Under the pieces are notes generated by a model. The model was not told the DNA's origin and made no database searches. It saw only the letters and a program-made list of their open reading frames with translations. Shown one piece after another: positions 2,082 through 26,981 of a stretch of 26,981 nt of DNA (positions are counted from its first letter, which is position 1; every line of letters begins with the position of its first letter). This DNA comes from Myxococcota bacterium (GTDB lineage: Bacteria; Myxococcota; XYA12-FULL-58-9; JALHOP01): assembly GCA_041288095.1 (NCBI GenBank), contig JBGGMJ010000198.1, forward strand, positions 1-26,981. Direction: 5' to 3'. Both the position numbers and the translations under genes were made by a program.

Positions 2082-2108
2082 GCAACCGCCTCGAAACTCC
2101 GGCGATAA
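2082..2108 (+). promoter_or_regulatory. Putative sigma28 (FliA/WhiG)-like promoter of the GH13 gene
   Basis: GCAA(2082-85)-N15-GGCGATAA(2101-08), compared with canonical TAAA-N15-GCCGATAA. The motif recurs upstream of three other genes in the window. Confidence 0.65.
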
Positions 2109-2136
2109 CTGGCACATCCCAGTCCGGAGCAGTCGG

Positions 2137-4995
2137 TTGCCCATCAACGAGGTGCGTTTTCGCCACCTTGTCTCGGCGGAAGTACCCGCCGGCAAGGCCT
2201 TTCCGCGCGAAGCTCCGACCGCGCGGCGGATGCACCGGCCTGCCACGGCCGCACCCGGCGACGGGCTCTCGGTCAAGACGAGGGCCACGCTTCCCACCCG
2301 CGACGTGACCTTCATCTACGACGCCGGCCCCCAGCGCGACGTCGGCAACGTCCGTCTCAACGGCAGCTGGGACAAGACGACCGGCCGCTACAGCCCCGAG
2401 TGGGGGAACGCCACCGTCCCCATGCGCTACCTCGGCGACGGCCGCTGGTCGGCAACCGTGCGCGTGGTCGACGACGGTGCCGCGCATCCGTGGGAGTGGG
2501 GTGTGCTCGCGGACACGCCGGCGAAGAAGGGCGCCTGGGTCGTCCACGCCGGCAACAACCTGCGCTTCGACCCCGGTCTCGGCCAGGCCGTGTATAGCCC
2601 GACCACCTATCACGCGATGGGTGCGCGCAAGGGTCCTCAGGGCGATCTGAATTTCAAGGTCTGGCTGCCGCACGCGAGCGAAGTCACGGCGCGGGTCACC
2701 GGCCGCGACGGCACGACCGCGCATTATCCGCTGAAGCGGACCGGCGAAGACTGGGTCGCCTCGGTCCCGGCGGCTTTCGCTCGTCATGTCGGCTCGAGCT
2801 ACATGTACGAGATCGTCGACTCGAAGGGTGAGCGGCGGACCATTCCCGATCCCTACGCGCTCGAGGTCACTGGTGAGCAGCTCGGGCTGTCGCGGGCGTG
2901 GTTCGACCCAGTGAACGGCGCCGAGGTGCACCAGTACATCACACCTCACCGGCAGTTCATGCGCTTCGAATTGCGCGACGACACCGGCGCCGAACGAGCC
3001 TGGGTGGTGCTGAAAGACGACAGCGGCAGAGCCTTGAGCAAGAGCGACGTGGAGGCGCGGCTCGGCCCTCTCGATGGCGGGCTGCGGTCCGCTATCGCGG
3101 GGCATCGCAAGATCGACGATCTGGCCGCCATCGACGACCAGGGCCGCCTCGCCATGCGCTTTACCGACGGCACCTGGACGACGCTCGTGCACAACCCGGA
3201 AGCCCTGCACGGGTTGCGCTACGAGATGGTGCTGTCGAACGGCGGCCGTGCCCAGGACCCGTGGAGCGACCGCATCACCGCCGACAGCGGCGTGTCGTTC
3301 CGCGAGTCGCTCATCGTCGACGGCATCCGCTCATCGCAGCGGGTGACCACCCCGCCCACGCCCTGGAACAAAGCGGTCATCTATCAGATCCACGTGGGCA
3401 GCTTCTTCTCGTCGGCGAACAACTCACGACGGTCCACGTTCGCGGACGTGTGCGAGAAGCTCGACTATCTCGAATGGCTCGGCATCAACGCCGTCGAGCT
3501 CCTGCCGGTCACCGAAGAGCAAGGTGTGCGCGGCTGGGGCTACGCCATGGGTGTGGTCAATTTCGCGACCGAAAGTGGTCTCGGCTTCATGCACGAGGGT
3601 CGTTGGGTTTCCGGCCGCGAGGCGCTGCGCTTGCTGCGCGCCGAGATGCAGAAGCGCCGCATGAATCTCATCGCCGACGTCGTCTATAATCACGCGCTCG
3701 ACAAAGAGAACCCGCTCGCCGACGTCGACCCCGCCAATCCGTACTACAACTGGGGCAGCGTCGAGCAGCCGCAGCTGCGCAAGACGCCGTGGGGACCGAT
3801 CCCGGCGTTCAACAATCCGCGCGTGCGCCAGTTCCTCATCGATCACGCGGTGGCGCAGATCCTCGAAAACGGCTTCGACGGTCTACGCCTCGACTTCACC
3901 CAGCCCATCTACCAGGAGGGTGGCCATGAGGGGCGCGCCTTCCTCGTCGAGCTGGTCTCGCAGATCCGCGAGGTCGCGCCGCACGCGCTGCTCATCCCCG
4001 AGGACTTCTCGTACCAGCCGTGGATCGTCGAGCTGATGGGGACGCTCTGGTACACCGAGTTCCAGCACCGTCTCGTGCATGACCACAACCCGGATCGACC
4101 GGGTCTCGTGCAAGCGGCCGCGCTCGGCAAGCCCACGAACGTCGACGCGTTCTTGAAGCTGCTGACGAGCCCGATTGGGCTGCACGCGCTGACGCAGGCG
4201 ATCACGATGATCTCGAACCACGACGAGGTCGGAAACGCCAACCGCACACCGATCGTGGCGCAGGGCACGAGCCCCACGGCGGACCCGCCGCAGTGGGCGC
4301 GCGACGTCTCGCGTCTCACCATGCTCATCGGCCTCATGAGCCCGGGCGTACCGTTCATGTTCATGGGCGACGAGTTCCTCGCCACCAACGGCTTTCGCTG
4401 GGGCAAGCCGTCGACGTGGGACATGGGCTGGACGTGGTTTCGGCTGGGCAAGAGCTGGGACTGGAGTGCGCTGCGCTACGACGACGACGTGCGCAAGGTC
4501 TACGAGCGGCTGTTCACGTTGGGCGACGCGGCCTTCGCCGACCCCGAGTTCATGAAGCTCGCCGAAGCGGACAAGAAGGTCTACCGCGACCTGCACGCCA
4601 TGAGCCCCGAGCAGCGCGCCACCGCACTCGTCGATATCTCGCGCAAGCTCGCCACAATCTTTGCCAAGGACGCCATCGCCCTGCGCCACGCCAGCGACGG
4701 CCTCGCCGCTGACGTGCCAGCGAAACCGCTCTACGCGCACAACGACGATGGTGTCTTCGCCTTCACGCGTGGCGAGCACGGTCCCGACTTCGTGGTGGTG
4801 GCCAACGTCTCCAAGGAGATCCGTCGCGGTTACCGCATGCCGCTGCCCGAGGGCAGATTTCGTCAAGTGCTGAGCAGCGATGATGTCCGGTATGGCGGAC
4901 GTGGCGTGGGGCCGAGCGCGGCTATCCTCGTGGATGGCGCGACGCTCGACTTGCCAGCGGGTGGCGCTCTCTTGCTGCAGCGCCTCCCCGATTGA
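2137..4995 (+). CDS. GH13 alpha-amylase family enzyme (TreZ/GlgB-like) with N-terminal CBM48-like domains
   Basis: GH13 regions DVVYNH, GFDGLRLDF (nucleophile Asp), LIPEDF (acid/base Glu) and SNHDE; IYQIHVGSF; CBM48-like MGA...FKVWLPHASEV. TTG start preceded by GGAG. Confidence 0.88.
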   Translation: MPINEVRFRHLVSAEVPAGKAFPREAPTARRMHRPATAAPGDGLSVKTRATLPTRDVTFIYDAGPQRDVGNVRLNGSWDKTTGRYSPEWGNATVPMRYLGDGRWSATVRVVDDGAAHPWEWGVLADTPAKKGAWVVHAGNNLRFDPGLGQAVYSPTTYHAMGARKGPQGDLNFKVWLPHASEVTARVTGRDGTTAHYPLKRTGEDWVASVPAAFARHVGSSYMYEIVDSKGERRTIPDPYALEVTGEQLGLSRAWFDPVNGAEVHQYITPHRQFMRFELRDDTGAERAWVVLKDDSGRALSKSDVEARLGPLDGGLRSAIAGHRKIDDLAAIDDQGRLAMRFTDGTWTTLVHNPEALHGLRYEMVLSNGGRAQDPWSDRITADSGVSFRESLIVDGIRSSQRVTTPPTPWNKAVIYQIHVGSFFSSANNSRRSTFADVCEKLDYLEWLGINAVELLPVTEEQGVRGWGYAMGVVNFATESGLGFMHEGRWVSGREALRLLRAEMQKRRMNLIADVVYNHALDKENPLADVDPANPYYNWGSVEQPQLRKTPWGPIPAFNNPRVRQFLIDHAVAQILENGFDGLRLDFTQPIYQEGGHEGRAFLVELVSQIREVAPHALLIPEDFSYQPWIVELMGTLWYTEFQHRLVHDHNPDRPGLVQAAALGKPTNVDAFLKLLTSPIGLHALTQAITMISNHDEVGNANRTPIVAQGTSPTADPPQWARDVSRLTMLIGLMSPGVPFMFMGDEFLATNGFRWGKPSTWDMGWTWFRLGKSWDWSALRYDDDVRKVYERLFTLGDAAFADPEFMKLAEADKKVYRDLHAMSPEQRATALVDISRKLATIFAKDAIALRHASDGLAADVPAKPLYAHNDDGVFAFTRGEHGPDFVVVANVSKEIRRGYRMPLPEGRFRQVLSSDDVRYGGRGVGPSAAILVDGATLDLPAGGALLLQRLPD

Positions 4996-4998
4996 CGG

Positions 4999-6651
4999 TT
5001 ACAACGACGCGGCAAGCGCGTCGACAGCATCACACTGTTCGCTGCGAAGCCCGGCTGCCGCGGTGATGTCTTCACCGAACGTGAGATAGGGATCGCTCGT
5101 GTCGTAGCGCGGCCAGGTGATGTCGCCGGGGCCGTTCACGTCGCCGCCGCCGGCAAGGCGCGTCCAGTAGCGCTGGGTGGCCTCGGACAACACGAGATCG
5201 TCGGGTGTGGGGCTGTAGCCGAAGGCCTCGAACTCGCGGAACACGAAGGGTAGCTCGATGCCGTGCGTCGCCCCGACGATGGCTCCGCCAATGCCCGGCC
5301 CATGCCACGTGAAGTAGTAGCGGTAGACCGGCTCGCTCTGATGCGTCGCGGCCGCGAGCGCGAGCGAGCGCGCGGGACAGGTCCAGATGACGTCGGTCGT
5401 CAGGCGCACCAAGGCATAGCGCGGCGATGGGTAGTCGGCGGCCGGGTAGATGGCCAGGAGCTGGTTACCGAGCGTCAACCCATACTGGGCACGCACCGCC
5501 GCGGCGTATTGCTCCGGCGTCTCGACCGCGGCGACCATGCGCGAGGTCTCTTCGGCGTTGGTGCCGATGACCAGGGGGACGTGATTGTGCGTGCCCGAGG
5601 CGAGGGCGTCGGCGGCGTTCATCGGCAGCACGTAGCCGTCGACCACGGGGCCGTAGCGCATGCCTTCGCCTTCGAGCGGACCGATGGCGCTGGGCACGCC
5701 GACGATAGAGTCGACCGTCCGCCCGCGCATACAAGCCACTTCGTCGATGGCGTCGTCACAGTCCACCGCGGCGACGAGCTCCTGCATCGCGGCTTGGGCG
5801 TCTTCGATGGTCGTGCGGTAGACGCCGCCACTCTCGACGATAGCGGCATGGAACAAGCCCGCCGACAGCGGCGACGCGATGTGCACCAACGTATTCTGGC
5901 CGCCGGCCGACTCACCGAACAGGAGGACATGCGTCGGCGAGCCGCCGAAGGCCGCGACATTGGCCTGCACCCAACGCAGCGCCGCTTGCTGGTCGAGGAT
6001 GCCGTAGTTACCGGAGACCGCGTGCGTGCTCTCGGCGTCGAGGCCGCGATGCGTGAAGTACCCGAGCGCGCCCAGACGGTAGGCAATCGTCACGACGACG
6101 GCCCCGGTGCGGGTCGCGAGCTCGTGACCATCGTAGAGGGGGTCGGAGGCCGTGCCCTGCGCGTTGCCACCGCCATGCACGAAGAACAGCACCGGCGCGT
6201 CGTGCGCGTCTTCGCGTGCCCAGACATTCAGCGTGAGGCAATCCTCGTTGCCGATGACCGTGCCGTCGGAGAGCTGCGGACAAGTCGGGCCGAAGGCGCT
6301 CGCGAAGACTTCGGTTGCGACGCAGCTCGCGGGCACCGGTGGCTTCCAGCGCAGCTCGCCTACCGGTGGTTCGGCATAGCGGACACCCTTCCACGACCAC
6401 GTCGTGTCGGTCTTCTGGCCGGTGACGGCGCCGCTCGTCGTGATCACGGTGCCCGGACGCGCCGCGACGGTGGTGCACGCAGGTTGGTCATCGTCGGCCG
6501 GGGCGTCGTCGTCGCCATCGTCCACGTCGTCGTCATCGCCCCGCAGCGTGTCTTCGTCGCTGGGCGGCGGCCCGTCGGCCTCGTTGCGGCCGCAGGCGCT
6601 GGTCGCGAGGGCGAAGGTGCAAAGGGTCAACGCGCAAGTGAACCGCCGCAT
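4999..6651 (-). CDS. Type-B carboxylesterase/lipase, lipoprotein
   Basis: EDCLTLNVW, HGGG oxyanion hole, GESAGG nucleophile, TNAEE and ATHG; lipobox-like ATSAC followed by an Asp-rich linker. Confidence 0.92.
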   Translation of the reverse strand: MRRFTCALTLCTFALATSACGRNEADGPPPSDEDTLRGDDDDVDDGDDDAPADDDQPACTTVAARPGTVITTSGAVTGQKTDTTWSWKGVRYAEPPVGELRWKPPVPASCVATEVFASAFGPTCPQLSDGTVIGNEDCLTLNVWAREDAHDAPVLFFVHGGGNAQGTASDPLYDGHELATRTGAVVVTIAYRLGALGYFTHRGLDAESTHAVSGNYGILDQQAALRWVQANVAAFGGSPTHVLLFGESAGGQNTLVHIASPLSAGLFHAAIVESGGVYRTTIEDAQAAMQELVAAVDCDDAIDEVACMRGRTVDSIVGVPSAIGPLEGEGMRYGPVVDGYVLPMNAADALASGTHNHVPLVIGTNAEETSRMVAAVETPEQYAAAVRAQYGLTLGNQLLAIYPAADYPSPRYALVRLTTDVIWTCPARSLALAAATHQSEPVYRYYFTWHGPGIGGAIVGATHGIELPFVFREFEAFGYSPTPDDLVLSEATQRYWTRLAGGGDVNGPGDITWPRYDTSDPYLTFGEDITAAAGLRSEQCDAVDALAASL

Positions 6652-6734
6652 GATGATCTCCCTCGATTGGTGCTTCCTGGAGGGAGAAACCGGGGTCGCT
6701 TACGCGGGTTGCGATGCGGGGGCCTGACGCCTTG

Positions 6735-8459
6735 TCAGCGCCGGTTCTTCTTGCGCGCCTTCTTCTCGGCTTTACGCTTGTCTTTCGACTTCTGCTTGGT
6801 CTGGCTGTCGACCTGGCGCGGCGCCATCTGACCCATGCGGGCCTTCAGGAACTGCTGGTACTGCTGCATCGAGACGCCTGGCGGTAGGCCACCGGGAGGC
6901 AGAGGCATGCCACCGGGCGCGCCACCACCCATGCCGGGCAAACCGCCGGCGCCACCGAGCCCGGGCAGACCACCCGGGGGCATTCCGGGCATTCCCGGCA
7001 TGCCGCCGCCCAGGCCCATCTTCTGAGCCATCTGGCCGAGGTCGCCCATGCCCATGCCGCCCATGACGTCGTTCATGTTCATGCCCTTGAGCTTGCGCAG
7101 GGCACCCAGCTGCTTGAAGCCGGGGAGGTTGCCGAGCAGGCCGGGCTGGGCCACGAGGTTTTGCATCAGGCCTTGCATCATGCCGAAGCGCTGCACGAGG
7201 TCCTTGACGTCCTCGGGCTTGCGTCCGCTGCCGCGGGCAATGCGCTTGGCGCGGCTGTCATCGATGATCGCGGGCTTTTCGCGCTCGGCTTTGGTCATCG
7301 AGTGGATCAGCGACTCCATGGCAACGAACGCTTTGTCGTCGACCTGCGCACCGTCCGGGAGAGAGTCGCCGAAGATCGGAAACTTCTCGTAGATGTCCTT
7401 CATCGAGCCGACCTTCTGCAGCATCTTCAATTGCTGCAGAAAATCGTCGAGCGTGAACTGGCCGCGCAGGAGCTTCTTGGTGTCGCGCTCGGCTTGCTTC
7501 TCGTCGACGACCTGCTCGAAGTCCTGCATGAGGCCGACGATGTCGCCCATGCCGAGGATGCGGCTCGCGAGACCTTCCGGACGGAAGCGCTCGAGCTTGT
7601 CGAGACCTTCACCTTGGCCGAGGAACTTGATCGGCTTACCGGTGATCTCCTTGATGGAGAGCGCCGCGCCACCGCGGGCGTCGCCGTCCATCTTGGTCAT
7701 GATGAAGCCGGAGATATCGAGTCGGCGGTTGAACTCGGCGGCGGTGCGCACCGTGTCCTGACCCGCCATGGCGTCGCAGACCAAGAAGATGTTGTCCGGC
7801 TTGGTCTTCTGCTTGATTTGCTCGAGCTCTTGCATGAGCGCGTCGTCAATCGCGAGGCGGCCCGCGGTGTCGAAGATGACGACGTCGCGCTTCTTCTTCT
7901 TGGCTTCTTGCAGGGCGTCGGCGCAGAGCTGCGGCGGCGAAAGCCCGGGCTGCGCGAACACCGGCACACCCAAGCGCTCTCCCAAGATCTTGAGCTGCTC
8001 GACGGCGGCGGGGCGGTAGATGTCGGCGGCGACGAGGAGCGGTCTGCGCTTGTCCGCTAAAAGATACTGAGCGAGCTTGCCGGTGGTCGTCGTCTTACCA
8101 GTACCCTGGAGGCCGACCATCATGATGGTGGTGAAAGGGCGCTTGAACTTGATCGGCGCTTCCTCGACCGGCCCCATGAGCTTCTCGAGCTCGTTGTGGC
8201 AGATGAGGATGAAATGTTCGCCCGGCGTCGCCTCCCGCTTCTTGCCGTCCTTCTGCGTCGCGAGCTGGACAACCTCGCCCAGGGCGCGTTGCTTCACCCG
8301 GTCGACGAAGGTGCGTACGACGCCGAGCTCGACGTCGCCTTCGAGGAGCGAGACGCGGATCTGGCGGACCGCCTCGTCGATGTTTTCTTCGGTGAGCTCG
8401 GCCTTACCGGTGAGCGCGTTCTTGGCGGACTTGAAGCCCTTGGAGACAATCTCCAGCAT
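6735..8459 (-). CDS. ffh: Signal recognition particle protein Ffh
   Basis: GLQGTGKTTT, DTAGR, TKMDGDARGG, PEGLASRILGMGD and M-domain SMT..ER...SRAKRIARGSG. Confidence 0.97.
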   Translation of the reverse strand: MLEIVSKGFKSAKNALTGKAELTEENIDEAVRQIRVSLLEGDVELGVVRTFVDRVKQRALGEVVQLATQKDGKKREATPGEHFILICHNELEKLMGPVEEAPIKFKRPFTTIMMVGLQGTGKTTTTGKLAQYLLADKRRPLLVAADIYRPAAVEQLKILGERLGVPVFAQPGLSPPQLCADALQEAKKKKRDVVIFDTAGRLAIDDALMQELEQIKQKTKPDNIFLVCDAMAGQDTVRTAAEFNRRLDISGFIMTKMDGDARGGAALSIKEITGKPIKFLGQGEGLDKLERFRPEGLASRILGMGDIVGLMQDFEQVVDEKQAERDTKKLLRGQFTLDDFLQQLKMLQKVGSMKDIYEKFPIFGDSLPDGAQVDDKAFVAMESLIHSMTKAEREKPAIIDDSRAKRIARGSGRKPEDVKDLVQRFGMMQGLMQNLVAQPGLLGNLPGFKQLGALRKLKGMNMNDVMGGMGMGDLGQMAQKMGLGGGMPGMPGMPPGGLPGLGGAGGLPGMGGGAPGGMPLPPGGLPPGVSMQQYQQFLKARMGQMAPRQVDSQTKQKSKDKRKAEKKARKKNRR

Positions 8460-8566
8460 GGCGCGCTCTCTAGCTTTTAGTGTCCGAGAAGGGAAGCCCG
8501 GTTGGCAGGTCGGATCGTCGTGCTTAGGTTGCCGACCGGACGCAGTACTTTTGGTGGGGGACGATC

Positions 8567-9043
8567 ATGGGGATGTTCGATTCGATGCTCGGTAACATGG
8601 CGAAGAAGTCGCAGGCGACGCAGGGCTCGCAAGAGCGCTTCACAACGCTCAAGCAGAAATACCAGCCGGTCTTGAACAAGATCGAGCAGAGCGGTGTGCA
8701 GCTGCAGAATCTCCACGTGGAGAACGACAAGCTCTTCGTTCGTGGCATCGCGCCGTCCGAGACGGTGAAGAACCAGATCTGGGACGAAGTGAAGCGTATC
8801 GATGCGCGCTGGGCGGACCTGCAACTCGAGCTGACGACGAGCGGTGGTGGCGCGCAGACCGAGGCGAAGTTCGAGCGCTATACGGTCAAGGCGGGCGACA
8901 CGCTCTCCAAGATTGCCCAGCAGTTCTACGGCGACAAGATGGCCTATCAGCGCATCTTCGAAGCCAACCGCGACATCCTGAAGGACCCGGACAAGATCGA
9001 GGTCGGTCAGGTGATCAAGGTGCCGAAGCTGGCGATGGCCTAA
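8567..9043 (+). CDS. LysM peptidoglycan-binding protein with BON-like N-domain (Kbp/YgaU-like)
   Basis: C-terminal YTVKAGDTLSKIAQQFYG...IFEANRDILKDPDKIEVGQVIKVP; SD-like GGGGA upstream. Confidence 0.88.
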   Translation: MGMFDSMLGNMAKKSQATQGSQERFTTLKQKYQPVLNKIEQSGVQLQNLHVENDKLFVRGIAPSETVKNQIWDEVKRIDARWADLQLELTTSGGGAQTEAKFERYTVKAGDTLSKIAQQFYGDKMAYQRIFEANRDILKDPDKIEVGQVIKVPKLAMA

Positions 9044-9053
9044 AGAGCCACGG

Positions 9054-9084
9054 GCGGGCACGCGTCGTAAAAGCGCGTGTCCGC
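9054..9084. terminator. Stem-loop between convergent genes
   Basis: GCGGGCACGCG / CGCGTGTCCGC form an 11-bp stem (one G-U) with a 9-nt loop; no clear U-tract. Confidence 0.5.
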
Positions 9085-9085
9085 T

Positions 9086-10248: not shown

Positions 10249-10314
10249 GTGCTGAGGCAATTTTCCGTTACAGGGGTGTGGCTTGTAAAACTTTTTTGAG
10301 TGTAGGCTAGGTGG

Positions 10315-10854: not shown

Positions 10855-10883
10855 GCTCAGTTGCGTCACGGCCGGTTCGAGCA

Positions 10884-12050: not shown

Positions 12051-12106
12051 GCCGGGGTCTGTGCGCGTGGCCACACTGGGCGGGTCGCCCTGGCTCTGGC
12101 CCCGGC

Positions 12107-12134
12107 GCAACTCGGGGGAGGAGGCTGCCGAGAC
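12107..12134 (+). promoter_or_regulatory. Putative sigma28-like promoter of the M20 peptidase
   Basis: GCAA(12107-10)-N16-GCCGAGAC(12127-34), 6 nt before ATG 12141. Confidence 0.6.
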
Positions 12135-12140
12135 GTGGGC

Positions 12141-13496
12141 ATGCTTCCTCGCCTGAACAGCAGTGCCGCCGCCGAGCATTTGGCCGCGGCCCTCCGTTTC
12201 AAGACCATCGTCGTAAGCCCCGAGGGCCCGGTGCCGAAGGCCGAGCTCCAGGGCCTGCGGGACTACCTCGCGAAGACCTTCCCGCTGGTGCACCGGCACC
12301 TCGCGGTCGAGCAGGTCAACGAGAGCCTGCTGTTCACCTGGAAACCCGCTCAGCCCTCGAGCGAAGGCGGCCTGCTCTTGATGGCCCACATGGACGTGGT
12401 GCCGATCGAGCCGGGCACCGAGACGAAGTGGACGCATCCGCCGTTCGCCGGCGTCATCGACCAGGACCTCATCTATGGGCGCGGCGCCATCGACGACAAG
12501 GCGCGGCTGGTCGGTACCCTCGAGGCCGTCGAGAGCCTGCTCGCGGCCGGAGTCACGCCCAAGCGCACCGTGTATCTTTCCTTCGGAGCGGACGAGGAAG
12601 TCGGCGGCGCCACCGGCGCGAAGGTCATCGCCAAGACGCTGCAAGAACGCGGCGTCAAGCTCGACATCGTGCTCGACGAAGCCGGCGCCGTGACGCAAGG
12701 CGTGAATCCCAACGTCCAGAAGCCGATTGCCAGCATCGGCATCGCCGAGAAGGGCTACGTCTCGTTCGAGCTGACGGCGAAGGGGCCGCCGGGCCATGCC
12801 GCCTTCCCGGCCAAGAACACCGCGATAGCGGTCTTGTCCTCGGTCATCGACGATCTCAACAGCAACCAGATGCGGGCGCGCATGACCCCGCTCTTGCGCA
12901 ACACCTTGAAGGCGCTGGGTCCGCACATGCCGTGGCCCCAACGGCTCGCCGTGCGCGCCGGCAAGTTGGGTGAGTGGCTGCTTCTGCGGACGATGGACGC
13001 GACCCCGACCACGGCGGCGCAGATCCGTACGACCTTCGCGCCCACCATCCTCAAGGCGGGCATCAAGGACAACCTGGTGCCGTCGATGGCGACGGCGGTG
13101 GTGAACTTCCGCATCTTGCCCGGTGAGACCGTCGCCGACGTGGAGGCGCACGTGAAGCGCGCCATCGGTAACGCGCCGGTGGCCGTGAAGGTGCTGGCCG
13201 GCGCTCATGATCCTCCGGGAGTTTCGTCGTCCGCCGACGCGGGCTTTCTCGCCATGGCGGAGGCGGTGCGCGCGACCTTCGGCGAAGACGTGGTCATCGC
13301 GCCGACCCTGGTCGCTGGCATCACCGATTCGCGCCACTTCGACGCCATCGCCAAGAACACCTACCGCTTCACCCCCGTGCGGCTGACCGCGCGCGACGTC
13401 GCGACCATTCACGGTACCGACGAGAAGATCAGCGTGAACGCTTTCGCGGACTTGGTGCGCTTCTATCAGCGCATCATCACGAAGCTAGCGCTCTAG
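12141..13496 (+). CDS. M20 family metallopeptidase (CPS1/PM20D1-like carboxypeptidase)
   Basis: AHMDVVP, GRGAIDDK, DEE, LDE, AEKGY and IHGTDE metal-ligand motifs. Start is ATG 12141 or GTG 12135. Confidence 0.92.
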   Translation: MLPRLNSSAAAEHLAAALRFKTIVVSPEGPVPKAELQGLRDYLAKTFPLVHRHLAVEQVNESLLFTWKPAQPSSEGGLLLMAHMDVVPIEPGTETKWTHPPFAGVIDQDLIYGRGAIDDKARLVGTLEAVESLLAAGVTPKRTVYLSFGADEEVGGATGAKVIAKTLQERGVKLDIVLDEAGAVTQGVNPNVQKPIASIGIAEKGYVSFELTAKGPPGHAAFPAKNTAIAVLSSVIDDLNSNQMRARMTPLLRNTLKALGPHMPWPQRLAVRAGKLGEWLLLRTMDATPTTAAQIRTTFAPTILKAGIKDNLVPSMATAVVNFRILPGETVADVEAHVKRAIGNAPVAVKVLAGAHDPPGVSSSADAGFLAMAEAVRATFGEDVVIAPTLVAGITDSRHFDAIAKNTYRFTPVRLTARDVATIHGTDEKISVNAFADLVRFYQRIITKLAL

Positions 13497-14353
13497 CGGC
13501 AGACGTAGTCCGCGGGCATCGTCGAGGCGATGCCGCTCGCGGCGATGTTCTTCAACGTCTGCGGGTGCACGGCGCCGCCGATGAATGGGCTCTTGAAATC
13601 GTAGCTGCCGGCGTAGACCAGGTCTTTGCCGCGCACGAAGGGCGCGTCTTCGAGGCGGTAGCGGCTGCCGAGGCGCGCCGGGAGTCCTCGGCCAAGGTCG
13701 AAGATCTCGAGGTCGCCCTTGGCGAGATCCATTTCGGGGCTCACGACCCACCAGCGGCCGTCCTTGGGGTAGGCGACCATGGTGTGAACGATGGGACGCT
13801 GGGGACCGGCGGGTTCCGCGCTCGGTCCACGCGGGCACATGGTCTGGTAGCCGGCGACGTCCATGACCACGAAGAAGCGAAGCTCGAGCGACGGGTCACG
13901 CAGCCAAGCGCGATGCGCCGTGGCCTTGGCGTAGTCCAGGCAGTTGAGGAAGGTGCGCTCGGCGAAGGCCTGTTCGCCGGTGCGCGCGAGCTGCATGCCG
14001 GGCAGATCCTTGGTCGCGGCGCGCGGCGCGGCTCGACTCACGGCCTGTTCGTAGCGGCGGACGCTCGCGGGCGCGAGGAGGCGCTCGACGTCGTGGCCCG
14101 CCGCGGCGAGGGCCTTGCGGATCGCCGCTTGCTCGCGCTCGCGGACCACGGGGTCGGCGGTGAAGAGGTTGTGGTACGCGAAAGCGTACACCTCGCGAAC
14201 CGGCACCTCGTTGTGCGCTTGGGCGTTGCGAACGTCGCGCAGTGCTTCGAGCAACGCAGGCGGAAGCTTCGCGGCGGACGCTCTGCTGATCGGCGTGACG
14301 CACGTACCCGATACCGCACGCATCCCGCCGGCGCTGGTGACGCTGATGCTCAT
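13493..14353 (-). CDS. Hypothetical protein, possible transglutaminase/papain-like Cys protease fold
   Basis: NCLDYA...IVHTMVAY..DGRWWVVSP spacing resembles transglutaminase-like C-H-D cores; ATGA overlap with the upstream gene. Confidence 0.55.
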   Translation of the reverse strand: MSISVTSAGGMRAVSGTCVTPISRASAAKLPPALLEALRDVRNAQAHNEVPVREVYAFAYHNLFTADPVVREREQAAIRKALAAAGHDVERLLAPASVRRYEQAVSRAAPRAATKDLPGMQLARTGEQAFAERTFLNCLDYAKATAHRAWLRDPSLELRFFVVMDVAGYQTMCPRGPSAEPAGPQRPIVHTMVAYPKDGRWWVVSPEMDLAKGDLEIFDLGRGLPARLGSRYRLEDAPFVRGKDLVYAGSYDFKSPFIGGAVHPQTLKNIAASGIASTMPADYVCR

Positions 14354-15648
14354 CGTTTGGCGCGCTCGCGCTCGACTGCTTGCATGATGCGACCGGCGAG
14401 GAGGCCGGCGCGGTCCCCATAGTGGCGCTCGCCCCAGTTGTAGCGGCGGATGGTGATGGCGTTGGGTCCGCTAAAAAAGGCTTCGGGATTGGCCTCGGTG
14501 CCGAAGCGAAAGACACGGCCACGGGCGCTAGCGGGGAACGAGCTCGGGATGCTGAACCCGGCGGCGCGGAGCTGCGCCACCGTCATTTCTCGGTCATCCT
14601 GCAGGCCGCGGATCGCCGCGGGCGTGCCTCGCAGCTCGACTCCGATGGGTTGACCTTGAGTGTAGCGCTCGCCCGGACGGTCGCGGCCGACGTTCGCATA
14701 GAAACGCGCCGCGAGCTCGGCGCTCTGCACCGGGTGCCAGGGGTCGAGGTCGCCGGCGAGCAGCACCAGATTCGAGGGCATGAACTGGCACCAGCCGAGC
14801 GCTCCAGCGGACGAGCCACCGAGCGTTGCGAGATCCCAGTTGCGCTCACGCGCGACCCGCACCAGCGCGCGTAGCTCACCGCGGAAGAACTCGGTGCGCT
14901 CGCCGTCGAAGGCGCCGCGCACGATTTGTTGGAAGGCGTTGTGGCCGCCGGAGAAGCCACCCATGTTGGTCTCGCCGCGTAACGTGCCGTAGATGGCCGC
15001 TACGTCGATGCCGTGCCTCCTGGCCGCTTCCTCGGCCTGCGGTCCGAACTCGAGGGCGTACGCCGTGCCCCGCTGAATGCCCGATTCGAGATAGGGCCGC
15101 ACCGAACGCTCGAACGAGGTGCGCGTGTCTGGTGGACGTGCGCCGGGGGCGACGTTAGCCGTGGCCCGCGGCAAGGCAACGCGCTCGACCAGCGCCATGA
15201 GCCGCTGCTGCTCCGCCTGGTCGCCGCCGGCGATGTCGCGGATGAGCCGCTGGACTTCGGGGCGCTGGTGGTACGGGCGCCCGACTCCTGGCTGGCGCTG
15301 CGCTTCGGCTTCGGCCTCGCGCCAAGCCTGCAGGCGGCGCTCTTGCTCGACGGGATCATTCGAGCGCGGCGGGAAGGGCACCAGCTGGCCGACCTCGACG
15401 CGCGGAGGTTGCATGGCGGCGGCCCAATCGAACGCCGGAAGCGCTTCGCGGGGCGCTTCGGTCACGGCCCGCTCGGGTGGGGGCAGGGCGAGCGGTGCGG
15501 TCACCGGGCCTTGGCTCAAGCGCGTTGGGCCCGCCGTCAGACGGTCGCGGTCGTCGGTCGGAGACACGGGCGGCAAGACGGCCTCGTGCTCGGCCGTTGG
15601 GACGGCGATTTCCTGGCCCGCTTGGACCGCTCGGACGGTTGTGCTCAT
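14350..15648 (-). CDS. Lytic murein transglycosylase (MltB/SLT_2-like) with Pro-rich N-terminal extension
   Basis: GETNMG (catalytic Glu), FFRGELRAL, GSSAGALGWCQFMPSN and ITIRRYN; no signal peptide. Confidence 0.85.
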   Translation of the reverse strand: MSTTVRAVQAGQEIAVPTAEHEAVLPPVSPTDDRDRLTAGPTRLSQGPVTAPLALPPPERAVTEAPREALPAFDWAAAMQPPRVEVGQLVPFPPRSNDPVEQERRLQAWREAEAEAQRQPGVGRPYHQRPEVQRLIRDIAGGDQAEQQRLMALVERVALPRATANVAPGARPPDTRTSFERSVRPYLESGIQRGTAYALEFGPQAEEAARRHGIDVAAIYGTLRGETNMGGFSGGHNAFQQIVRGAFDGERTEFFRGELRALVRVARERNWDLATLGGSSAGALGWCQFMPSNLVLLAGDLDPWHPVQSAELAARFYANVGRDRPGERYTQGQPIGVELRGTPAAIRGLQDDREMTVAQLRAAGFSIPSSFPASARGRVFRFGTEANPEAFFSGPNAITIRRYNWGERHYGDRAGLLAGRIMQAVERERAKR

Positions 15649-15657
15649 GCCCAGCCG

Positions 15658-15685
15658 TTATCGCCGTGCAGGCCATTCGAATTGC
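15658..15685 (-). promoter_or_regulatory. Putative sigma28-like promoter of the lytic transglycosylase operon
   Basis: On the minus strand, GCAA-N16-GGCGATAA lies 9 nt before ATG 15648. Confidence 0.65.
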
Positions 15686-15719
15686 TCCGGAAGGACTGAA
15701 CGCCTGGCAAGTCGCCCGA

Positions 15720-18700
15720 TTAGCGGCGGTGCTCGAGCCTCCAGCTCGTGAGCGTGCCGGTGGTGCCGGCGACCCGGTCGGCGACCTCGAGCTGCCAGGT
15801 GCCGGCGACCGGGTCGCCGTGCAGGCCAAAAAGGGTAGGCGCGTTCTCGACCGTGTAGGTGACATCCACGACGCCGGCGACACCGGTGACGCTCGAGGAC
15901 AGGATGAGGCGCTCCCCGGCGGGGCTCACCAAGCGCAGCTCGAGCTGGCTGGGGACCGCGTGGGTGACCCGTACGTGGACGCGCAGGTCCTCGACGCGCT
16001 GCCAGGGCGGGGCGGCGAGCGTGGCGCTGTTCGTGAAGGTGCCGTTGTCGACGAGCGCAAGTCCGGTGCCGCCGACGGCGGTGTCGAAGGGCGTATCGAC
16101 CGGCATGAGTCCGCCGCCCGAGGCGGTGACCTCACCATCGAACCAGCCCACGTTCGCGTCCCAGTTCGCGCACGCGTCTCCACAAGCACGTGGCGTGATG
16201 TTGGCCGGACGGTGGCGGACGATGTCATCGCTGGTGCCGAAGGCGAGGTCGGGGCCGCGGTTCACAACGAAAACCCCAAAGATGCCGAGGACGCCATCCA
16301 GGGTCGGCGTCGGCTGCTCGGCGTAGTACGCCAAAGAGTCGCCGACGAGCACGGGCAAGCGCTCGTCGGTTGGGCTGGCCGTGATCGAGACAGTTGCCCC
16401 GCCGAGCGTGTGCATGCGCACGTCCCAGTCGCCGTTGAGCTCGGAGTAGAGCACGATATTGCCTTCGATGCGCAGGTCGGCGCGGGACATGCCGCCTGCC
16501 GCGATGACGGTGCGCGCTCCGCCAATGGGGAACGTGGCGATGGAGGGCATGCAATTCGTGTCGGGCGCGCTGCCGCGCGTGCCGTCGCATAGGTCATTCG
16601 GATCATCGGCATAGTCGGCGTAGACGATGTTCCCGAGCGAGATGTCCGGGCTCACCGCGCGCGTGCCGGCCACAGTGAAGTCGTAGGGCGTGTCATCGCC
16701 GCCACCGACCCACCCGTCGGGCCCGAGTGCTACGCCCTTCAGGCGACTGTCGAGGTTACCGTCGAACCAGTTGCCACTGGGATCGAGAGACAGATCTCCC
16801 CACACCACGACACCGGCGTCGACGCGCGGCCAGTGGAACGTCCCCGGACCCGCGAGCTGCGTCGGCCCTTTGTCGTCGCTCGTGCCCGGAATACCGTCCG
16901 CTCCGGCGTAGTAGATCATGACCGTGCCACCAGGTTGATCGATCCATACGAAGTAGCCGTCGTCATCGACGTCCATGTCCGCTAAAGTGGTCACGTTCGG
17001 CTCGAGGCGCAGAAAGCCACCGGCCTCGGCATTGAGGAAGACGGGGCGGCGCTCGTTGGCGTCGAGGAAGGCGTAGAACCTGCCGGCGAGCGTTCCGCTG
17101 GGACCGCCCTCGCCGGAGCTATCCGCGACCTGGAAGGTGAGTGGCTCGCCATGGACGGAGTAGGTCGCCGGCCGTGCCTGCAGGCCGGGATAGGTCAGGC
17201 CTCCTATGATCATCGTGCCGCTCGCCGAGACACTGCCGAGGTCGCCACCGGTGAAGGCAGCGTTGGTGAGCGGCAGCGTCGTCCCCGTCGTCAGATCGCG
17301 CATGCCGTCGGCGGTCGATGTGAATGACGTGAAAAACGCCTTGTCGCCGTTGGCGGCCGTGAGGGTCGGGATGTCGTACAGGTGCACGACCGGAAGGTCG
17401 TCGCCATTGCCGAACACGTGGTCTGGGCCGGTGTCGTAGATGTCCCAGTCACCACCACCGACGTCGATGAGGATGCGGTCGTCGCCGAGCAGGACGTTGT
17501 CTCCCGGTGGAATCAACCACTCGCCGCCATCATAGCCGCCGCCCGGTTTGCCGTCGTTGCCGAGGTTGAACACGTAGTCGCGTGTCCCGGAGCGCTGATC
17601 GGTCCACAGCACGTGACGCGCGCTCGCTTGCAGCTTGCACGGGTGGAAGCCGAAGACGGATGAGGCAGCGGAGACCACGACGGCTCCCTGGCCGGCGTCC
17701 ATGATGTCGGGCCGTCGATCCGCGCCGTAGTTGTAGAAGGTGAGGCGGTTGGCGTTGCTGCCGTTGCCGAAGAATACGCCGGTCGGCGTGCCGGTTTGGC
17801 ACGTGCTCCCAACGATGCCGTTCCCGATGGTGACGATGGCGCCGTCGTCTACCGTCGAGAGCGCCTCGTCCGCTCCAACGTACATGGCCTTGATGACCGG
17901 CGAGAGCTGAGTGCTCAGGTCCGCGAACGCGAGCACGAGGCCGCCCATGTTCGGTGCCTGGAGCATGAAGTTGCCGGACCTGTTGGTGTAGACGATCTTG
18001 CTGCTGCACTCGAGCGCGTCCGCGCTCGCGCGCCTGCAGAGGTTGAGCTCGTGATTGCGGCAGACCTCGGGCGCCGACCCACACGCCGGCTGCGTCTGGT
18101 TGGTGGTGAAATTCTGCGTCGTAAACGTCGCCAGGCCCGAGCCGGCGTGGAAATCGCTGTACGTGCAGTTGACGCAGGCGTTGGGGAGGGCCCGGAGGGG
18201 AGTGTCGGCGACGGTGACGGTAACGCCGGTGCTGGGGTTGCCGGCGCGATCCACACCGCGGATGACGTAGACCGTGCTGCTGCCCGAAGCCGCGCCTGGC
18301 AAGACGATGCGGGGCTCGGTGGCGACCGCGGTGTAGTCGGCGTATGGGCCGCCCAGGATCTCGTACGTTACGAGACCCCCTCCGGGCTCGCGCGATGCGC
18401 CGAGTAGGACACCAACCTCGCTGGTGAGCAACCCGGAGACAATCTCGGTGAACGCGTGCGGCGCGCTCGGCGGCTGCGAGTCCTCGTGGATGCTGAGAAC
18501 GCCTTGCGCGGCCGGCGACGTCATGTTGCCGAAGACGTCGCGCTCGCGGATCCACAGGGTCGTCGTCGCGTCCTGCGCGAGCGTCGCCAGCGCCAAGGCA
18601 CCCAAGGTCGACGTGGACGTCCACGTGGTGCCGTCGGTCGAATAGACGTAGCCGTCGAAGTCGTCCGGCACCGGCACCATCGAGTGGAAGAACACCGTGA

Positions 18701-19535
18701 GGCTGGAGGCGTTGACGAAGACCTCGGGTGGCGTCGGCGTGTCGATGACGACGTTGCCCGACGGCGTTTGCGTGTCGAGCGCGAGAGCCAGTGGGACGGC
18801 TGCGACGTTGCCCGCGGCGTCGGCGAGCAGAATCTGAAGCAGCTTGGAGCCGTCGCCCGGGGTCAGCGTCACCGGCAGCGTTTCGGCATAGGAGACCTCG
18901 AGGGTCGCTGGCAGATCGCCGCTCACCGTGGCACTCGCCGGCACCTCGCCGCCGGCGGGGAGGATCGGCCGCAGGGTGATCGCCAAAACATCCACCCAGG
19001 TAACGCCGCTCGCCACGACCGCTTCGTCGACATCGATGCCGTCGACGATCGGCGCGGTGTAGTCGAGCGTGACGGTGCCGATGGTGGCATCGCGGGTGAC
19101 GCGACCCTGCGCATCGGCGAAGGTGCCGCGGATCGTGGCGTCGCCCTCCGCTTCGCCGCCCGTGGTCTCGTACGAGAAGACGAAAGGCCCGGTTGAGCCG
19201 CCGGATTCGTAAACGAGCGCGCCCGCGAAGGCGCCGCTCACGATGCTCAACGTCGGCGCTCCGATGAGCGCGTGATCCGTCGAGAACTCGACCCTGATGC
19301 GGCGGTTGGCGCCGGCGACCGGAGGGGTGATCGACGGAGTGCCCGCGACCTGCGCCCCGTCACCGGTCGCTGGCGTCGTCGGCAAGCACAGACCCAGTCC
19401 GCCATCGCAGACATAGCCGTTGGGACAAGCCGGGGTTTGGACGCTACAGGTCACCAGCGCGGAGCTGGGGACACCGAGGTCGGCAAGACAGGCGGGGAGG
19501 GTAAGTAAAGCGAGGACCGGGGCGCGTAATCGCAT
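15720..19535 (-). CDS. Large surface lipoprotein: Cys-rich N-terminus, Ig-like repeats, beta-propeller-like region, C-terminal proprotein convertase P-domain
   Basis: Lipobox in MRLRAPVLALLTLPAC (start 19535); DxxGN Ig-like ends; PxxxGxxVVW-type repeats; C-terminal LRVHVRVTH...L.LVSPAG...GTWQLEVAD...GTLTSWRL. Confidence 0.8.
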   Translation of the reverse strand: MRLRAPVLALLTLPACLADLGVPSSALVTCSVQTPACPNGYVCDGGLGLCLPTTPATGDGAQVAGTPSITPPVAGANRRIRVEFSTDHALIGAPTLSIVSGAFAGALVYESGGSTGPFVFSYETTGGEAEGDATIRGTFADAQGRVTRDATIGTVTLDYTAPIVDGIDVDEAVVASGVTWVDVLAITLRPILPAGGEVPASATVSGDLPATLEVSYAETLPVTLTPGDGSKLLQILLADAAGNVAAVPLALALDTQTPSGNVVIDTPTPPEVFVNASSLTVFFHSMVPVPDDFDGYVYSTDGTTWTSTSTLGALALATLAQDATTTLWIRERDVFGNMTSPAAQGVLSIHEDSQPPSAPHAFTEIVSGLLTSEVGVLLGASREPGGGLVTYEILGGPYADYTAVATEPRIVLPGAASGSSTVYVIRGVDRAGNPSTGVTVTVADTPLRALPNACVNCTYSDFHAGSGLATFTTQNFTTNQTQPACGSAPEVCRNHELNLCRRASADALECSSKIVYTNRSGNFMLQAPNMGGLVLAFADLSTQLSPVIKAMYVGADEALSTVDDGAIVTIGNGIVGSTCQTGTPTGVFFGNGSNANRLTFYNYGADRRPDIMDAGQGAVVVSAASSVFGFHPCKLQASARHVLWTDQRSGTRDYVFNLGNDGKPGGGYDGGEWLIPPGDNVLLGDDRILIDVGGGDWDIYDTGPDHVFGNGDDLPVVHLYDIPTLTAANGDKAFFTSFTSTADGMRDLTTGTTLPLTNAAFTGGDLGSVSASGTMIIGGLTYPGLQARPATYSVHGEPLTFQVADSSGEGGPSGTLAGRFYAFLDANERRPVFLNAEAGGFLRLEPNVTTLADMDVDDDGYFVWIDQPGGTVMIYYAGADGIPGTSDDKGPTQLAGPGTFHWPRVDAGVVVWGDLSLDPSGNWFDGNLDSRLKGVALGPDGWVGGGDDTPYDFTVAGTRAVSPDISLGNIVYADYADDPNDLCDGTRGSAPDTNCMPSIATFPIGGARTVIAAGGMSRADLRIEGNIVLYSELNGDWDVRMHTLGGATVSITASPTDERLPVLVGDSLAYYAEQPTPTLDGVLGIFGVFVVNRGPDLAFGTSDDIVRHRPANITPRACGDACANWDANVGWFDGEVTASGGGLMPVDTPFDTAVGGTGLALVDNGTFTNSATLAAPPWQRVEDLRVHVRVTHAVPSQLELRLVSPAGERLILSSSVTGVAGVVDVTYTVENAPTLFGLHGDPVAGTWQLEVADRVAGTTGTLTSWRLEHRR

Positions 19536-19585
19536 GCGGCGGGGAGCATGCGCGCAGGGGCGGGGGCTCCGCAATGACCAGCGTC

Positions 19586-19621
19586 ACACCGGGCGTCGCG
19601 TTTGCCGCGACGCCCGGGTGT
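19586..19621 (-). terminator. Strong GC hairpin downstream of the OmpA/MotB gene
   Basis: CCGGGCGTCGCG (19589-600) / CGCGACGCCCGG (19606-17) form a perfect 12-bp stem, loop GCAAA on the minus strand; no U-tract. Confidence 0.55.
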
Positions 19622-19632
19622 AAGCGCTCGAG

Positions 19633-20445
19633 CTACTTGCCGACGTTTTCGAAGCCGGGCAGCTCGTCGAGCTTCGGCATGAAGACGATCTCGACGCGGC
19701 GGTTCTGCGTCTTGTTCTCCACCGTGTCGTTGGCGACCAGCGGGTCGAACTCGCCGTTACCCGCGGCGGAGATATTCGCCGCCGGGACGCCGGCTTGCAC
19801 CATCAGCTTGGTGACCTCGACGGCGCGCTGGGTCGAAAGCTCCCAGTTCGACGGGAAGCGGGCGGTCTTGATGGGCGCACCGTCCGTGTGACCCACGACC
19901 TGGAACTTACGGTCCGGGAACTCCTTGATCGTCTGTGCGAGCTGCTCGATCGCGGCCTTGGCTTCGGGCTTGATGATGATGCCGCCCGGTGGGAAGACGA
20001 CGTCGCTCGACATCTGCACGACCATGCGGCCGTTGCGGATCTTCACCTGCAGGGTGCCGGCGTCGATCATCTTGTTCAGCTTCTCCATGACCTTGCGGTA
20101 CTCGGCGTTGCACTGCTCGGCGCTGGCGCGCAGGCGGCGGAGCTCTTCGACTTCCTTGGCCAGGGCGGCCTTCTCGTCACTGACGGCCGCCTTGGAGGCG
20201 GTGAGCTCTTCGACGTTCTGACCGAGGGCCGTGAGCTTCGAGACCATCTGCGCGTTTTGATCGCGCGTCTTCACCAGGTCGGCATCGCAGGCGCCGCTCT
20301 TCGTCTGGCAGCCGGCGAGATCGTTTTTGAGCTGATCGCGCTCTTTGACGACGGCTTCGTGGGTGCCGCTGCCTACGCACGCGGTTGCAAGGATGGCAGC
20401 AAGGCCGAAAGCGCTGCCGGAAAGGACATTTGAACGGATCTTCAC
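19633..20445 (-). CDS. OmpA/MotB-like peptidoglycan-binding lipoprotein with coiled coil
   Basis: GHTD, FPSNWELSTQRA and NRRVEI; lipobox LATAC; GTG start at 20445 with GGGAGG SD. Confidence 0.9.
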   Translation of the reverse strand: MKIRSNVLSGSAFGLAAILATACVGSGTHEAVVKERDQLKNDLAGCQTKSGACDADLVKTRDQNAQMVSKLTALGQNVEELTASKAAVSDEKAALAKEVEELRRLRASAEQCNAEYRKVMEKLNKMIDAGTLQVKIRNGRMVVQMSSDVVFPPGGIIIKPEAKAAIEQLAQTIKEFPDRKFQVVGHTDGAPIKTARFPSNWELSTQRAVEVTKLMVQAGVPAANISAAGNGEFDPLVANDTVENKTQNRRVEIVFMPKLDELPGFENVGK

Positions 20446-20499
20446 AGTGCCTCCCAAAGGGGTTTGTAGGGCGTCAACTAACGAAGTTGCGAGAGCCGC

Positions 20500-20527
20500 G
20501 CAACTTCGATGGGGGTGTTGCCGATAG
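20500..20527 (+). promoter_or_regulatory. Putative sigma28-like promoter of the orphan helical gene
   Basis: GCAA(20500-03)-N16-GCCGATAG(20520-27); the -35 lies inside a perfect 10-bp inverted repeat. Confidence 0.65.
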
Positions 20528-23978: not shown

Positions 23979-24014
23979 GAAGTGAGTGACCCCAACGGGA
24001 ATCGAACCCGTGTT
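23979..24014 (-). repeat. 36-nt direct repeat of the tRNA-Glu 3' end plus 8 nt of trailer
   Basis: GAAGTGAGTGACCCCAACGGGAATCGAACCCGTGTT is identical at 23979-24014 and 24063-24098 (84-nt offset). Confidence 0.95.
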
Positions 24015-24070
24015 GTCGACGCGAAGCGGAGACGAAAGAAAACGTCGCCACGCGAAAACACGGAAGTGAG

Positions 24071-26980: not shown

Positions 26981-26981
26981 A

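Follow-up and report, generated by a model that had tools for sequence, protein, structure and literature searches.

Why would four genes scattered over one short contig, all described as lacking signal peptides, share a sigma-28-like promoter? The contig is JBGGMJ010000198.1 of a Myxococcota bacterium (26,981 nucleotides (nt), here called the window; contig C198 of our genome G000, which comprises 5.85 Mb with 66% G+C on 212 contigs and is 90% complete), and the original prediction, made from its sequence, had placed the promoters before a GH13 glycoside hydrolase, an M20 peptidase, an MltB-like transglycosylase and an orphan gene. We found all four at the predicted positions and on the predicted strands, with spacers of N15, N16, N16 and N16. 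The distances to the start codons, predicted as 6 to 36 nt, were measured as 28 (TTG 2137), 6, 9 and 36 nt (ATG 20564). N15 and N16 are counted after a four-base GCAA and equal 14 and 15 nt after the five-base GCAAC. Genes were called with a custom dicodon model, which gave 5,011 genes in G000 with approximate start positions.

The answer we favour, with a probability of about 0.58 and judged from sequence comparisons, is that the promoters are read by a sigma factor encoded among the genes of a system for type III secretion (T3SS), hereafter sigma-T3, and that its regulon consists mostly of cargo of that system, which resembles the needle-less T3SS* of Myxococcus xanthus. The parts of this answer differ in strength. 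That the motif is a real, large and conserved promoter class is close to certain, and that sigma-T3 reads it is very likely. Provided that it does, export of most of the targets by T3SS* appears fairly probable. By analogy with M. xanthus, we infer that the regulon would serve predation.

A large and conserved promoter class

A genome scan contrasting upstream and coding positions had been proposed with the original prediction, and in G000 the sites proved to be strongly concentrated upstream. Of 65 occurrences of GCAA-N15-G[CG]CGATA, 52 are upstream of a gene, and so are 23 of 29 for the N16 form; each of nine other spacers gives 0 to 3 such cases, in a genome in which upstream positions make up 4.4% of the sequence. 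An iterated matrix, seeded from the motif of the original prediction and refined on upstream matches, has the consensus rcGCAAC-N14/15-gcCGATAa and finds 307 sites, which precede 306 genes and are distributed over 123 of the 212 contigs; this agrees with the claim of a dispersed sigma-28-family promoter. Sites of at least 16 bits are upstream of genes in 215 of 241 cases (N15) and 92 of 117 (N16), against 0 to 5 at other spacers. Counted by gene, 306 of 4,834 have such a site, while the control spacers give 6 and 9. With the threshold lowered to 12 bits, the count is 408 against 55 and 74, so that about 340-360 genes are real members. When the matrix was trained on odd contigs alone, 155 of 2,434 held-out genes reached 16 bits, compared with 4 and 4 for the control spacers. 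The window is no special cluster, since the density over the whole genome predicts 1.4 sites for it, with a probability of 0.055 for four or more. The pattern fitted to its four sites, GCAA-N15/16-GSCGAKA, occurs 4 times in it against 0.14 in 100 shuffles.

Canonical sigma-28 promoters have a -35 box TAAA(G) and a -10 box GCCGATAA separated by 15-16 nt. The G000 motif has the same spacing and orientation and a -10 box of the sigma-28 type, for which GCCGATAA is the commonest 8-mer (43 of 307 sites). The -35 box is a different one, and TAAA-N15-G[CG]CGATA occurs once in G000, antisense within a gene. The non-canonical -35 box of the original prediction therefore stands, although it is not the four-base GCAA that had been read but the five-base GCAAC (212 of 307 sites; the fifth base is C in 99%). 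The promoter is thus sigma-28-like in its -10 box, and it is not of the flagellar FliA class by its -35 box, by the recognition helix of its presumed sigma factor or by its targets.

The position of the first in-frame ATG is bimodal: 54 sites have it at 5-11 nt, with one Shine-Dalgarno sequence among them, and 141 at 20-60 nt, with 84 Shine-Dalgarno sequences. Such distances would be expected if transcription starts about 6-11 nt past the -10 box. In congeners both boxes are conserved and the spacer sequence drifts.

The candidate sigma factor

A FliA/WhiG sigma factor and T3SS genes, which the original prediction had suggested looking for, are both present in G000. Two genes have TIGR02479 as their best family, on contigs C127 (166.1 bits) and C92 (163.7 bits), and the next best gene scores 110. 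The C92 gene, sigma-T3, follows a 185-amino-acid (aa) gene, a TPR chaperone gene and a 159-aa gene. The C127 gene forms a stand-alone fliA-like and flgM-like pair (G000:C127:21744-22853) outside any flagellar cluster.

Orthologues of sigma-T3 form one clade in a quick tree (Shimodaira-Hasegawa-like approximate likelihood ratio test, SH-aLRT, 100). All 30 orthologue rows carry S-K-S-W in place of the S-E-S-R of FliA, and the region 4.2 helix reads LSKSWTSRLH in the C92 type and VSESRVSQLH in FliA, with P. aeruginosa FliA and B. velezensis SigD as the reference sigmas; it is therefore not a helix of the FliA type. The changed positions are those which we take, from known structures of sigma region 4, to face the -35 box, and the altered helix would account for GCAAC replacing TAAAG while the sigma-28 -10 box remains.

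The motif also precedes the operon of sigma-T3 itself. Before its first gene the site scores 17 bits in G000 and at least 16 bits in 19 of 27 scored Myxococcota loci (29 were found, two of them at contig ends), with an antisense control maximum of 7.2. In G000 there are further sites before sctV (18.4 bits) and the sctI-sctJ operon (13.6 bits), and none before sctU. A 35-kb T3SS region of another genome, G029, contains 6 sites of at least 16 bits and 0 at control spacers.

Sigma factor and motif tend to occur together. We counted GCAAC-N16-CGATA against the N19 control in 40 genomes, which are related and not independent, and found a sigma-T3 orthologue in 32 of them. N16 exceeds N19 in 32 of these 32 and at least twofold in 28, with 133 against 7 matches in G000 and 116-168 against 4-17 in its congeners. 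Four genomes in which sigma and SctV orthologues are both lacking (G032, G038, G045 and G059) have 3, 1, 0 and 0 matches. In G005 (54 against 4) the sigma gene was not found, and the upstream neighbour ends 150 nt from the contig end, so that the sigma gene would run off the contig.

As the original prediction had it, the regulon is not made of flagellar genes: the motif is absent from 14 of 14 flagellin upstream regions of relatives (best 5.1 bits), five of which carry, by eye, T[AC]AAG-N14/15-GnCGAT sites. All three congeners have flagellin and FlhA, and their flagellar clusters (G001:C2, G002:C2 and G003:C59) contain a third FliA. We found no flagellin or rod match in G000, which at 90% completeness may reflect loss or an assembly gap. 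We therefore no longer regard the lineage as non-flagellated, since its congeners possess flagellin.

Target genes

The bias to genes without signal peptides, noted in the window, extends over the genome. By a crude hydrophobicity rule, signal-like N-termini occur in 24 of 283 targets against 840 of 2,460 first-in-operon genes (p = 5e-22). The same holds for paralogues of targets, of which 4 of 39 with the promoter and 47 of 144 without it are signal-like (p = 0.005).

Type III substrates carry no Sec/Tat signal, and their N-termini are rich in Ser, Thr and Pro and poor in Leu and acidic residues. The targets show these features as a population trend and not gene by gene. In residues 2-26 of signal-less proteins, Ser, Thr and Pro together make up 25.7% in targets against 20.2%, and Leu, Asp and Glu are lower. 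A composition classifier using the first 40 residues reached an area under the curve (AUC) of 0.77 when cross-validated across contigs, against 0.61 for a mid-protein control. Applied unchanged to a distant family, it reached an AUC of 0.83 (11 promoter genes against 27 others).

For a Pfam scan we used 201 of the 306 targets (located in the retrieved regions, site within 150 nt, below 2,000 aa, window excluded) and 60 random neighbours out of 471. Matches were obtained for 55 of the 201 targets against 44 of the 60 neighbours, and among proteins of at least 200 aa for 49 of 123 against 38 of 44. The first domain begins within 25 residues in 3 of 55 targets against 14 of 44 neighbours. By manual reading, about 25 of the 55 matched targets are degradative hydrolases, against 3 of 44 neighbours: 17 are of peptidase type, five of lipase/esterase types, two of nuclease types and one is a GH97. 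The peptidases include three subtilases, two prolyl oligopeptidases, a thermolysin, a calpain, a clostripain, M14, M64 and S41 members, and a VanY with three peptidoglycan-binding repeats. The targets are mostly orphans or hydrolases, with T3SS parts included.

A lone Flp-type pilin gene (G000:C23:7871-8122; PF04964 30.6 bits, just below the cut-off) has a 20-bit site, which is a possible link to the Tad/Kil pilus. In the 4,157-aa target encoded at G000:C190:4574-17047, VWA domains occur together with a pair of dynein-related AAA domains.

The T3SS and its proposed role

Contig C92 encodes SctI (weak), SctJ, a FliG-like protein, SctL, SctN, SctO, SctP, SctQ, a FliO-like protein, SctR, SctS and SctT. 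SctV is on C31 and SctU on C41, which spreads the T3SS genes of G000 across three contigs or more. The content expected of a T3SS*, namely SctJ, L, N, Q, R, S, T, U and V, is therefore complete; V, R, Q and S score above the model cut-offs and J, L, N and T below. SctS and SctT score slightly higher on flagellar models. SctV is of the injectisome type, with 851 bits (above the cut-off) against 695 on the FlhA model (below). No secretin was found in the T3SS loci on C92, C31 and C41, the last of which has only 5 kb; secretins are on C40, C29 and C197. RcpC, a Tad component, has a match in G000. The stretch between sctN and sctO (G000:C92:10570-16749) is occupied by inserted genes: orphans, one with an HD domain and a DUF4781 gene whose match to RelA/SpoT is weak.

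In the mechanism that we propose, the sigma-T3 holoenzyme would start transcription at the GCAAC/CGATA boxes, including that of its own operon, in a positive loop, and in this genus it would transcribe further T3SS loci and about 350 scattered genes. N-termini rich in Ser, Thr, Pro, Asn and Gln would act as type III export signals. The products would stay unfolded at first, be led by their N-termini through the SctRSTUV gate and arrive at the prey where the cells are in contact, and many of them would act there as lytic or digestive enzymes. The original prediction had pointed to type III export as a process whose late substrates sigma-28 controls in flagellated bacteria; for the present promoters the implied route would be the non-flagellar T3SS* and not the flagellum.

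The first gene of the sigma operon (185 aa; G000:C92:37386-37943) is conserved. The C-terminal 65 residues of its product match 1,463 representatives (E of at most 0.001), none of them named, and the N-termini vary. For the C-terminal helix there are atlas leads to PF09392 (0.88, 19% of members) and, for 2 of 29 members, to HrpA (E = 0.0027). G029 also has three 73-aa genes in tandem (L270:9900-11029) whose ends are similar, and a separate promoter precedes each of them. It is possible that the 185-aa gene and the 73-aa genes encode overlooked needle or filament subunits.

The 159-aa gene (G000:C92:36185-36664) lies directly upstream of sigma-T3. This position is conserved, the N-terminus of the product is of low complexity, and no match was found in Pfam, NCBIfam or PDB. 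Complex prediction with sigma-T3 gave a weak 0.55 against 0.00 for the best of three controls; the runs disagree (0.77, 0.55 and 0.09), with contact agreement of at least 0% and a partner pLDDT (predicted local distance difference test) of at least 59. In the calibration of this score, 18 of 157 solved complexes attained the mark at values of at most 0.60, and so did both of the mismatches, out of 215, that passed. The 159-aa protein is a speculative candidate for an exported anti-sigma factor.

A more far-reaching version, which we regard as less likely than not, would have myxobacteria possess a sigma-28-like factor dedicated to T3SS*, with GCAAC/CGATA as the label by which all of the T3SS* cargo is addressed; in this genus the cargo would comprise lytic enzymes and orphan effectors, a few hundred in all. 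A good part of it would be secreted enzymes in which the signal peptide has been swapped for a type III N-terminus, the 159-aa gene may encode an exported anti-sigma through which the regulon is coupled to secretion when prey is contacted, and the operon's first gene may encode a needle or filament subunit that has been missed in the 'needle-less' system.

Alternative explanations

Several observations weigh against a T3SS* cargo regulon read by sigma-T3. The T3SS loci contain no secretin that would let cargo out of the periplasm, and a needle gene was not confirmed, as the 185-aa protein has no PDB match and its predicted model is poor. The signal-peptide calls come from the hydrophobicity rule, the 24 of 283 signal-like targets exceed its false rate of roughly 3%, and two more missed signals were seen by eye. 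Ser/Thr/Pro-rich N-termini also occur in young or disordered orphans. Targets that do not look like cargo include the Flp pilin, UbiA, a desaturase, a class IV aminotransferase and AAA ATPases. In the window, the M20 peptidase has an unremarkable N-terminus (63rd percentile on the composition classifier), and GH13 enzymes of the TreZ/GlgB type, which the window member resembles, are normally cytoplasmic. As to the sigma factor, the C92 gene, like the C127 one, is below the TIGR02479 cut-off of 189.6, although this is the best family for both, and the co-distribution rests on related genomes. Clear orthologues are lacking in G016 (22 against 9 matches; a fragmented genome in which the chaperone was not found either) and in G023 (21 against 12; only a 32% match), G031 has an unexplained 10 against 2 matches with no sigma found, and G007, G012, G021, G030 and G047 show little enrichment despite an orthologue.

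Some of these points would suit a broad predation or life-stage programme run by the same sigma and promoter, in which T3SS* is one member and the majority of the targets without a signal peptide stay in the cytoplasm or get out through lysis, in vesicles or in some other way. A regulon of about 7% of all genes, the presence of a pilin, signal-bearing proteins and metabolic enzymes among the targets, and T3SS loci without an outer-membrane channel all fit such a programme, and it has a precedent in the attack phase of Bdellovibrio, in which 92 of 140 promoters had a FliA site (PMC3627812; here and below, cited papers are represented by the available parts of their text). That set, however, contains flagellar, surface-anchor and chemotaxis genes. 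Neither the fourfold loss of signal peptides nor the same loss within paralogue families (4 of 39 against 47 of 144) would be predicted by a broad programme, and the same is true of N-terminal extensions on otherwise secreted enzymes and of a like N-terminal style in a distant family. We therefore consider it unlikely, though a serious competitor to cargo export.

The reader of the motif could also be another sigma factor, either the C127 protein (G000:C127:21744-22571) or the flagellar FliA of the congeners, and the cargo might then pass through the export gate of the flagellum. The C127 sigma equals sigma-T3 in its TIGR02479 score, has a neighbour of the FlgM family (PF04316, 31.3 against a cut-off of 25) and is present in all four of the motif-richest genomes; moreover, three congeners have flagellin and FlhA, which the assembly of G000, 90% complete, may merely be missing. 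Yet only 7 of 61 genomes yielded a close orthologue of the C127 sigma, the motif-rich G004 (58 against 4) and G015 (66 against 11) possess neither it nor flagellin, and it keeps a FliA-like helix, T-D-S-R-V-C-Q. The 14 flagellin promoters lack the motif, and flagellated genomes in which sigma-T3 is missing (G032, G038 and G059) have 3, 1 and 0 matches. We found no target motif for the C127 sigma: T[AC]AAG is not enriched at any spacer, nor is any other 5-mer conspicuous before residual -10 boxes. A reader other than sigma-T3 thus seems quite improbable. Lower still is the chance that the motif represents an operator, a repeat dispersed over the genome or an artefact of composition. It is true that the matrix was seeded from an earlier motif and that the transcription starts are predicted ones, but strict orientation, a fixed spacing of 15/16 nt around a free spacer sequence, held-out enrichment (155 against 4 and 4), a -10 box of the sigma-28 type and a leaderless class at 5-11 nt would hardly be expected of an artefact.

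Occurrence in other Myxococcota and comparison with known systems

The original prediction had called the regulon lineage-specific, which was too narrow: the motif and sigma-T3 candidates span many Myxococcota, including the family of Stigmatella, and the regulon is merely expanded in this genus. The sigma orthologue of G052 falls in a cluster named Stigmatella aurantiaca sigma-28 (WP_075004955.1), and further named relatives come from Myxococcus, Corallococcus, Pyxidicoccus, Archangium and others. The M. xanthus protein of the same clade keeps the helix as Q-S-K-S-W-A-S-R-L-H. In 40 published genomes of Stigmatella's family we counted 410 exact matches to GCAAC-N16/17-CGATAA against 40 to the reversed pattern; two genomes had none. 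Of 58 matches in G052 and G029, 30 were inspected manually: 13 precede signal-less genes with Ser/Thr/Pro-rich starts, among them the 73-aa genes repeated in the T3SS cluster, and 6 are inside long frames.

The T3SS* of M. xanthus (MXAN_2434-2464) gathers at prey contacts together with the Tad-like Kil pilus (PMC10849154, PMC12075869, PMC10433427, PMC12428579). It is required for prey lysis, and its effectors are stated to be unknown (PMC10433427, PMC12075869). The G000 system resembles it in the export apparatus, ATPase, C-ring, SctJ/SctI, TPR chaperones, the lack of an adjacent secretin and RcpC. The available text of the T3SS* accounts (PMC12075869, PMC10433427, PMC10849154, PMC12428579, PMC3459982) names no sigma factor, promoter or effector, and it describes the pairing of Tad and T3SS* as confined to Cystobacterineae, whereas G000 belongs to a distant lineage with flagellated congeners. 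Neither sigma-T3 nor the motif was found to be reported in the openly accessible literature searched.

The FliA regulon of Bdellovibrio bacteriovorus is similar in that a sigma-28-family regulator of a predator uses a CCGATA -10 box and has many uncharacterised targets as well as proteases (PMC3627812). There, the -35 box is TTAAG, the sigma is flagellar FliA and flagellar genes are included (PMC3627812). G000 differs in its GCAAC -35 box (0 matches to TTAAG-N16/17-CGATA), in a separate sigma clade tied to a non-flagellar T3SS and in flagellin genes that lack the motif. The -10 box GCCGATAA and the 15-16 nt spacing are shared with canonical FliA/SigD class-3 promoters, while the -35 box, the recognition helix and the hundreds of targets are not. 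In Campylobacter the flagellum exports non-flagellar proteins that lack Sec signals by means of an N-terminal type III signal (PMC2764114). The combination of such a signal with the lack of a Sec signal is what we propose for G000, which has an injectisome-type SctV.

T3SS sigma factors are known from plant and animal pathogens, for example HrpL, which reads the hrp box of Pseudomonas syringae, and BtrS of Bordetella, both of the extracytoplasmic function type. As with these, the G000 sigma is encoded with the T3SS and its box marks apparatus genes and scattered candidate effectors, so that the box can be used to find effectors; unlike them, it is of the FliA/WhiG type and occurs in bacteria that prey on bacteria. 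The motif may therefore list the prey-digesting proteins delivered by the myxobacterial T3SS*. A promoter box tied to the T3SS* sigma yields a short list of effector candidates in culturable genera, which makes the question of the unknown effectors testable, and the list holds cell-wall enzymes without signal peptides, fitting the local peptidoglycan degradation described in the available text of PMC12428579. If our reading is true, an early-branching injectisome has taken over a sigma-28-type factor of the flagellum, with a rewritten -35 box, and hundreds of orphans would be a source of antibacterial enzymes.

Promoters and genes of the window

The GH13 promoter (2082..2108, plus strand) consists of GCAAC, a 14-nt spacer and the -10 box GGCGATAA and scores 20.6 bits (20.8 held out). 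It is retained in three of three congeners at 19.8-21.5 bits with diverged spacers. The gene (2137..4995, plus strand; TTG start at 2137) encodes 952 aa with CBM48 and alpha-amylase domains. The protein is TreZ/GlgB-like with scores under the NCBIfam cut-offs and has no signal peptide. Its N-terminus is variable over roughly 50 aa and, read from an internal ATG, is at the 75th percentile of non-target genes on the composition classifier, which is the scale of the percentiles below.

The M20 promoter (12107..12134, plus strand; GCAAC, 15-nt spacer, GCCGAGAC) scores 17.6 bits (16.4 held out), and the transcript is probably leaderless, the ATG at 12141 being 6 nt past the promoter. The site is retained in G002, the one congener in which the gene turned up; the gene was not found at the corresponding locus in G001 or G003. 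The encoded PRK08262-like peptidase (12141..13496, plus strand; 451 aa) matches its profile from model position 49-57 on, so that the N-terminal region of the family is absent from it, and two of two promoter-less M20 paralogues have signal-like N-termini. Its closest paralogue (54%; G000:C61:11230-12764) has no signal peptide and a weak 9.9-bit site 6 nt before the ATG.

On the minus strand, the transglycosylase promoter (15658..15685; GCAAT, 15-nt spacer, GGCGATAA) scores 16.0 bits (14.9 held out), and three of three congeners have sites of 15.7-21.2 bits. This transcript, too, is probably leaderless, with the ATG at 15648 located 9 nt downstream. The MltB-like lytic transglycosylase (14350..15648, minus strand; 432 aa; SLT_2 at residues 130-405) has a Pro/Ala/Thr-rich N-terminal stretch at the 96th percentile and no signal or lipoprotein peptide, and among the genes of the window it is the leading candidate for an effector acting on the cell wall of prey. 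A 286-aa orphan (13493..14353, minus strand; no Pfam family; 86th percentile) overlaps the transglycosylase stop codon, has no promoter site of its own and is probably the second gene of this transcript.

The strongest site belongs to the 180-aa orphan (promoter 20500..20527, plus strand; GCAAC, 15-nt spacer, GCCGATAG; 22.0 bits, also 22.0 held out) and is retained in G001 and G002, the two congeners that could be scored, the locus in G003 being at a contig end. The leader before ATG 20564 carries a Shine-Dalgarno sequence. The orphan (20564..21106, plus strand) has no signal peptide and no Pfam family, its N-terminus is at the 93rd percentile, and there are weak TPR-like leads only, with atlas matches below 0.9 and template modelling (TM) scores below 0.5.

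All other genes of the window score at most 8.5 bits, which bears out the remark that the motif is not found ahead of the Sec and lipoprotein genes. Two adjacent orphans on the minus strand (25146-26039 and 26039-26981; no Pfam family) begin with stretches that resemble those of effectors (98th percentile for the first of the two), and a promoter for them would fall beyond the end of the contig. A tRNA-Glu gene lies at 24070-24143 (minus strand), and a frame running across it repeats a 12-residue stretch at about 23980-24060, which suggests a second copy of the 3' part of the tRNA, as at an old integration site.

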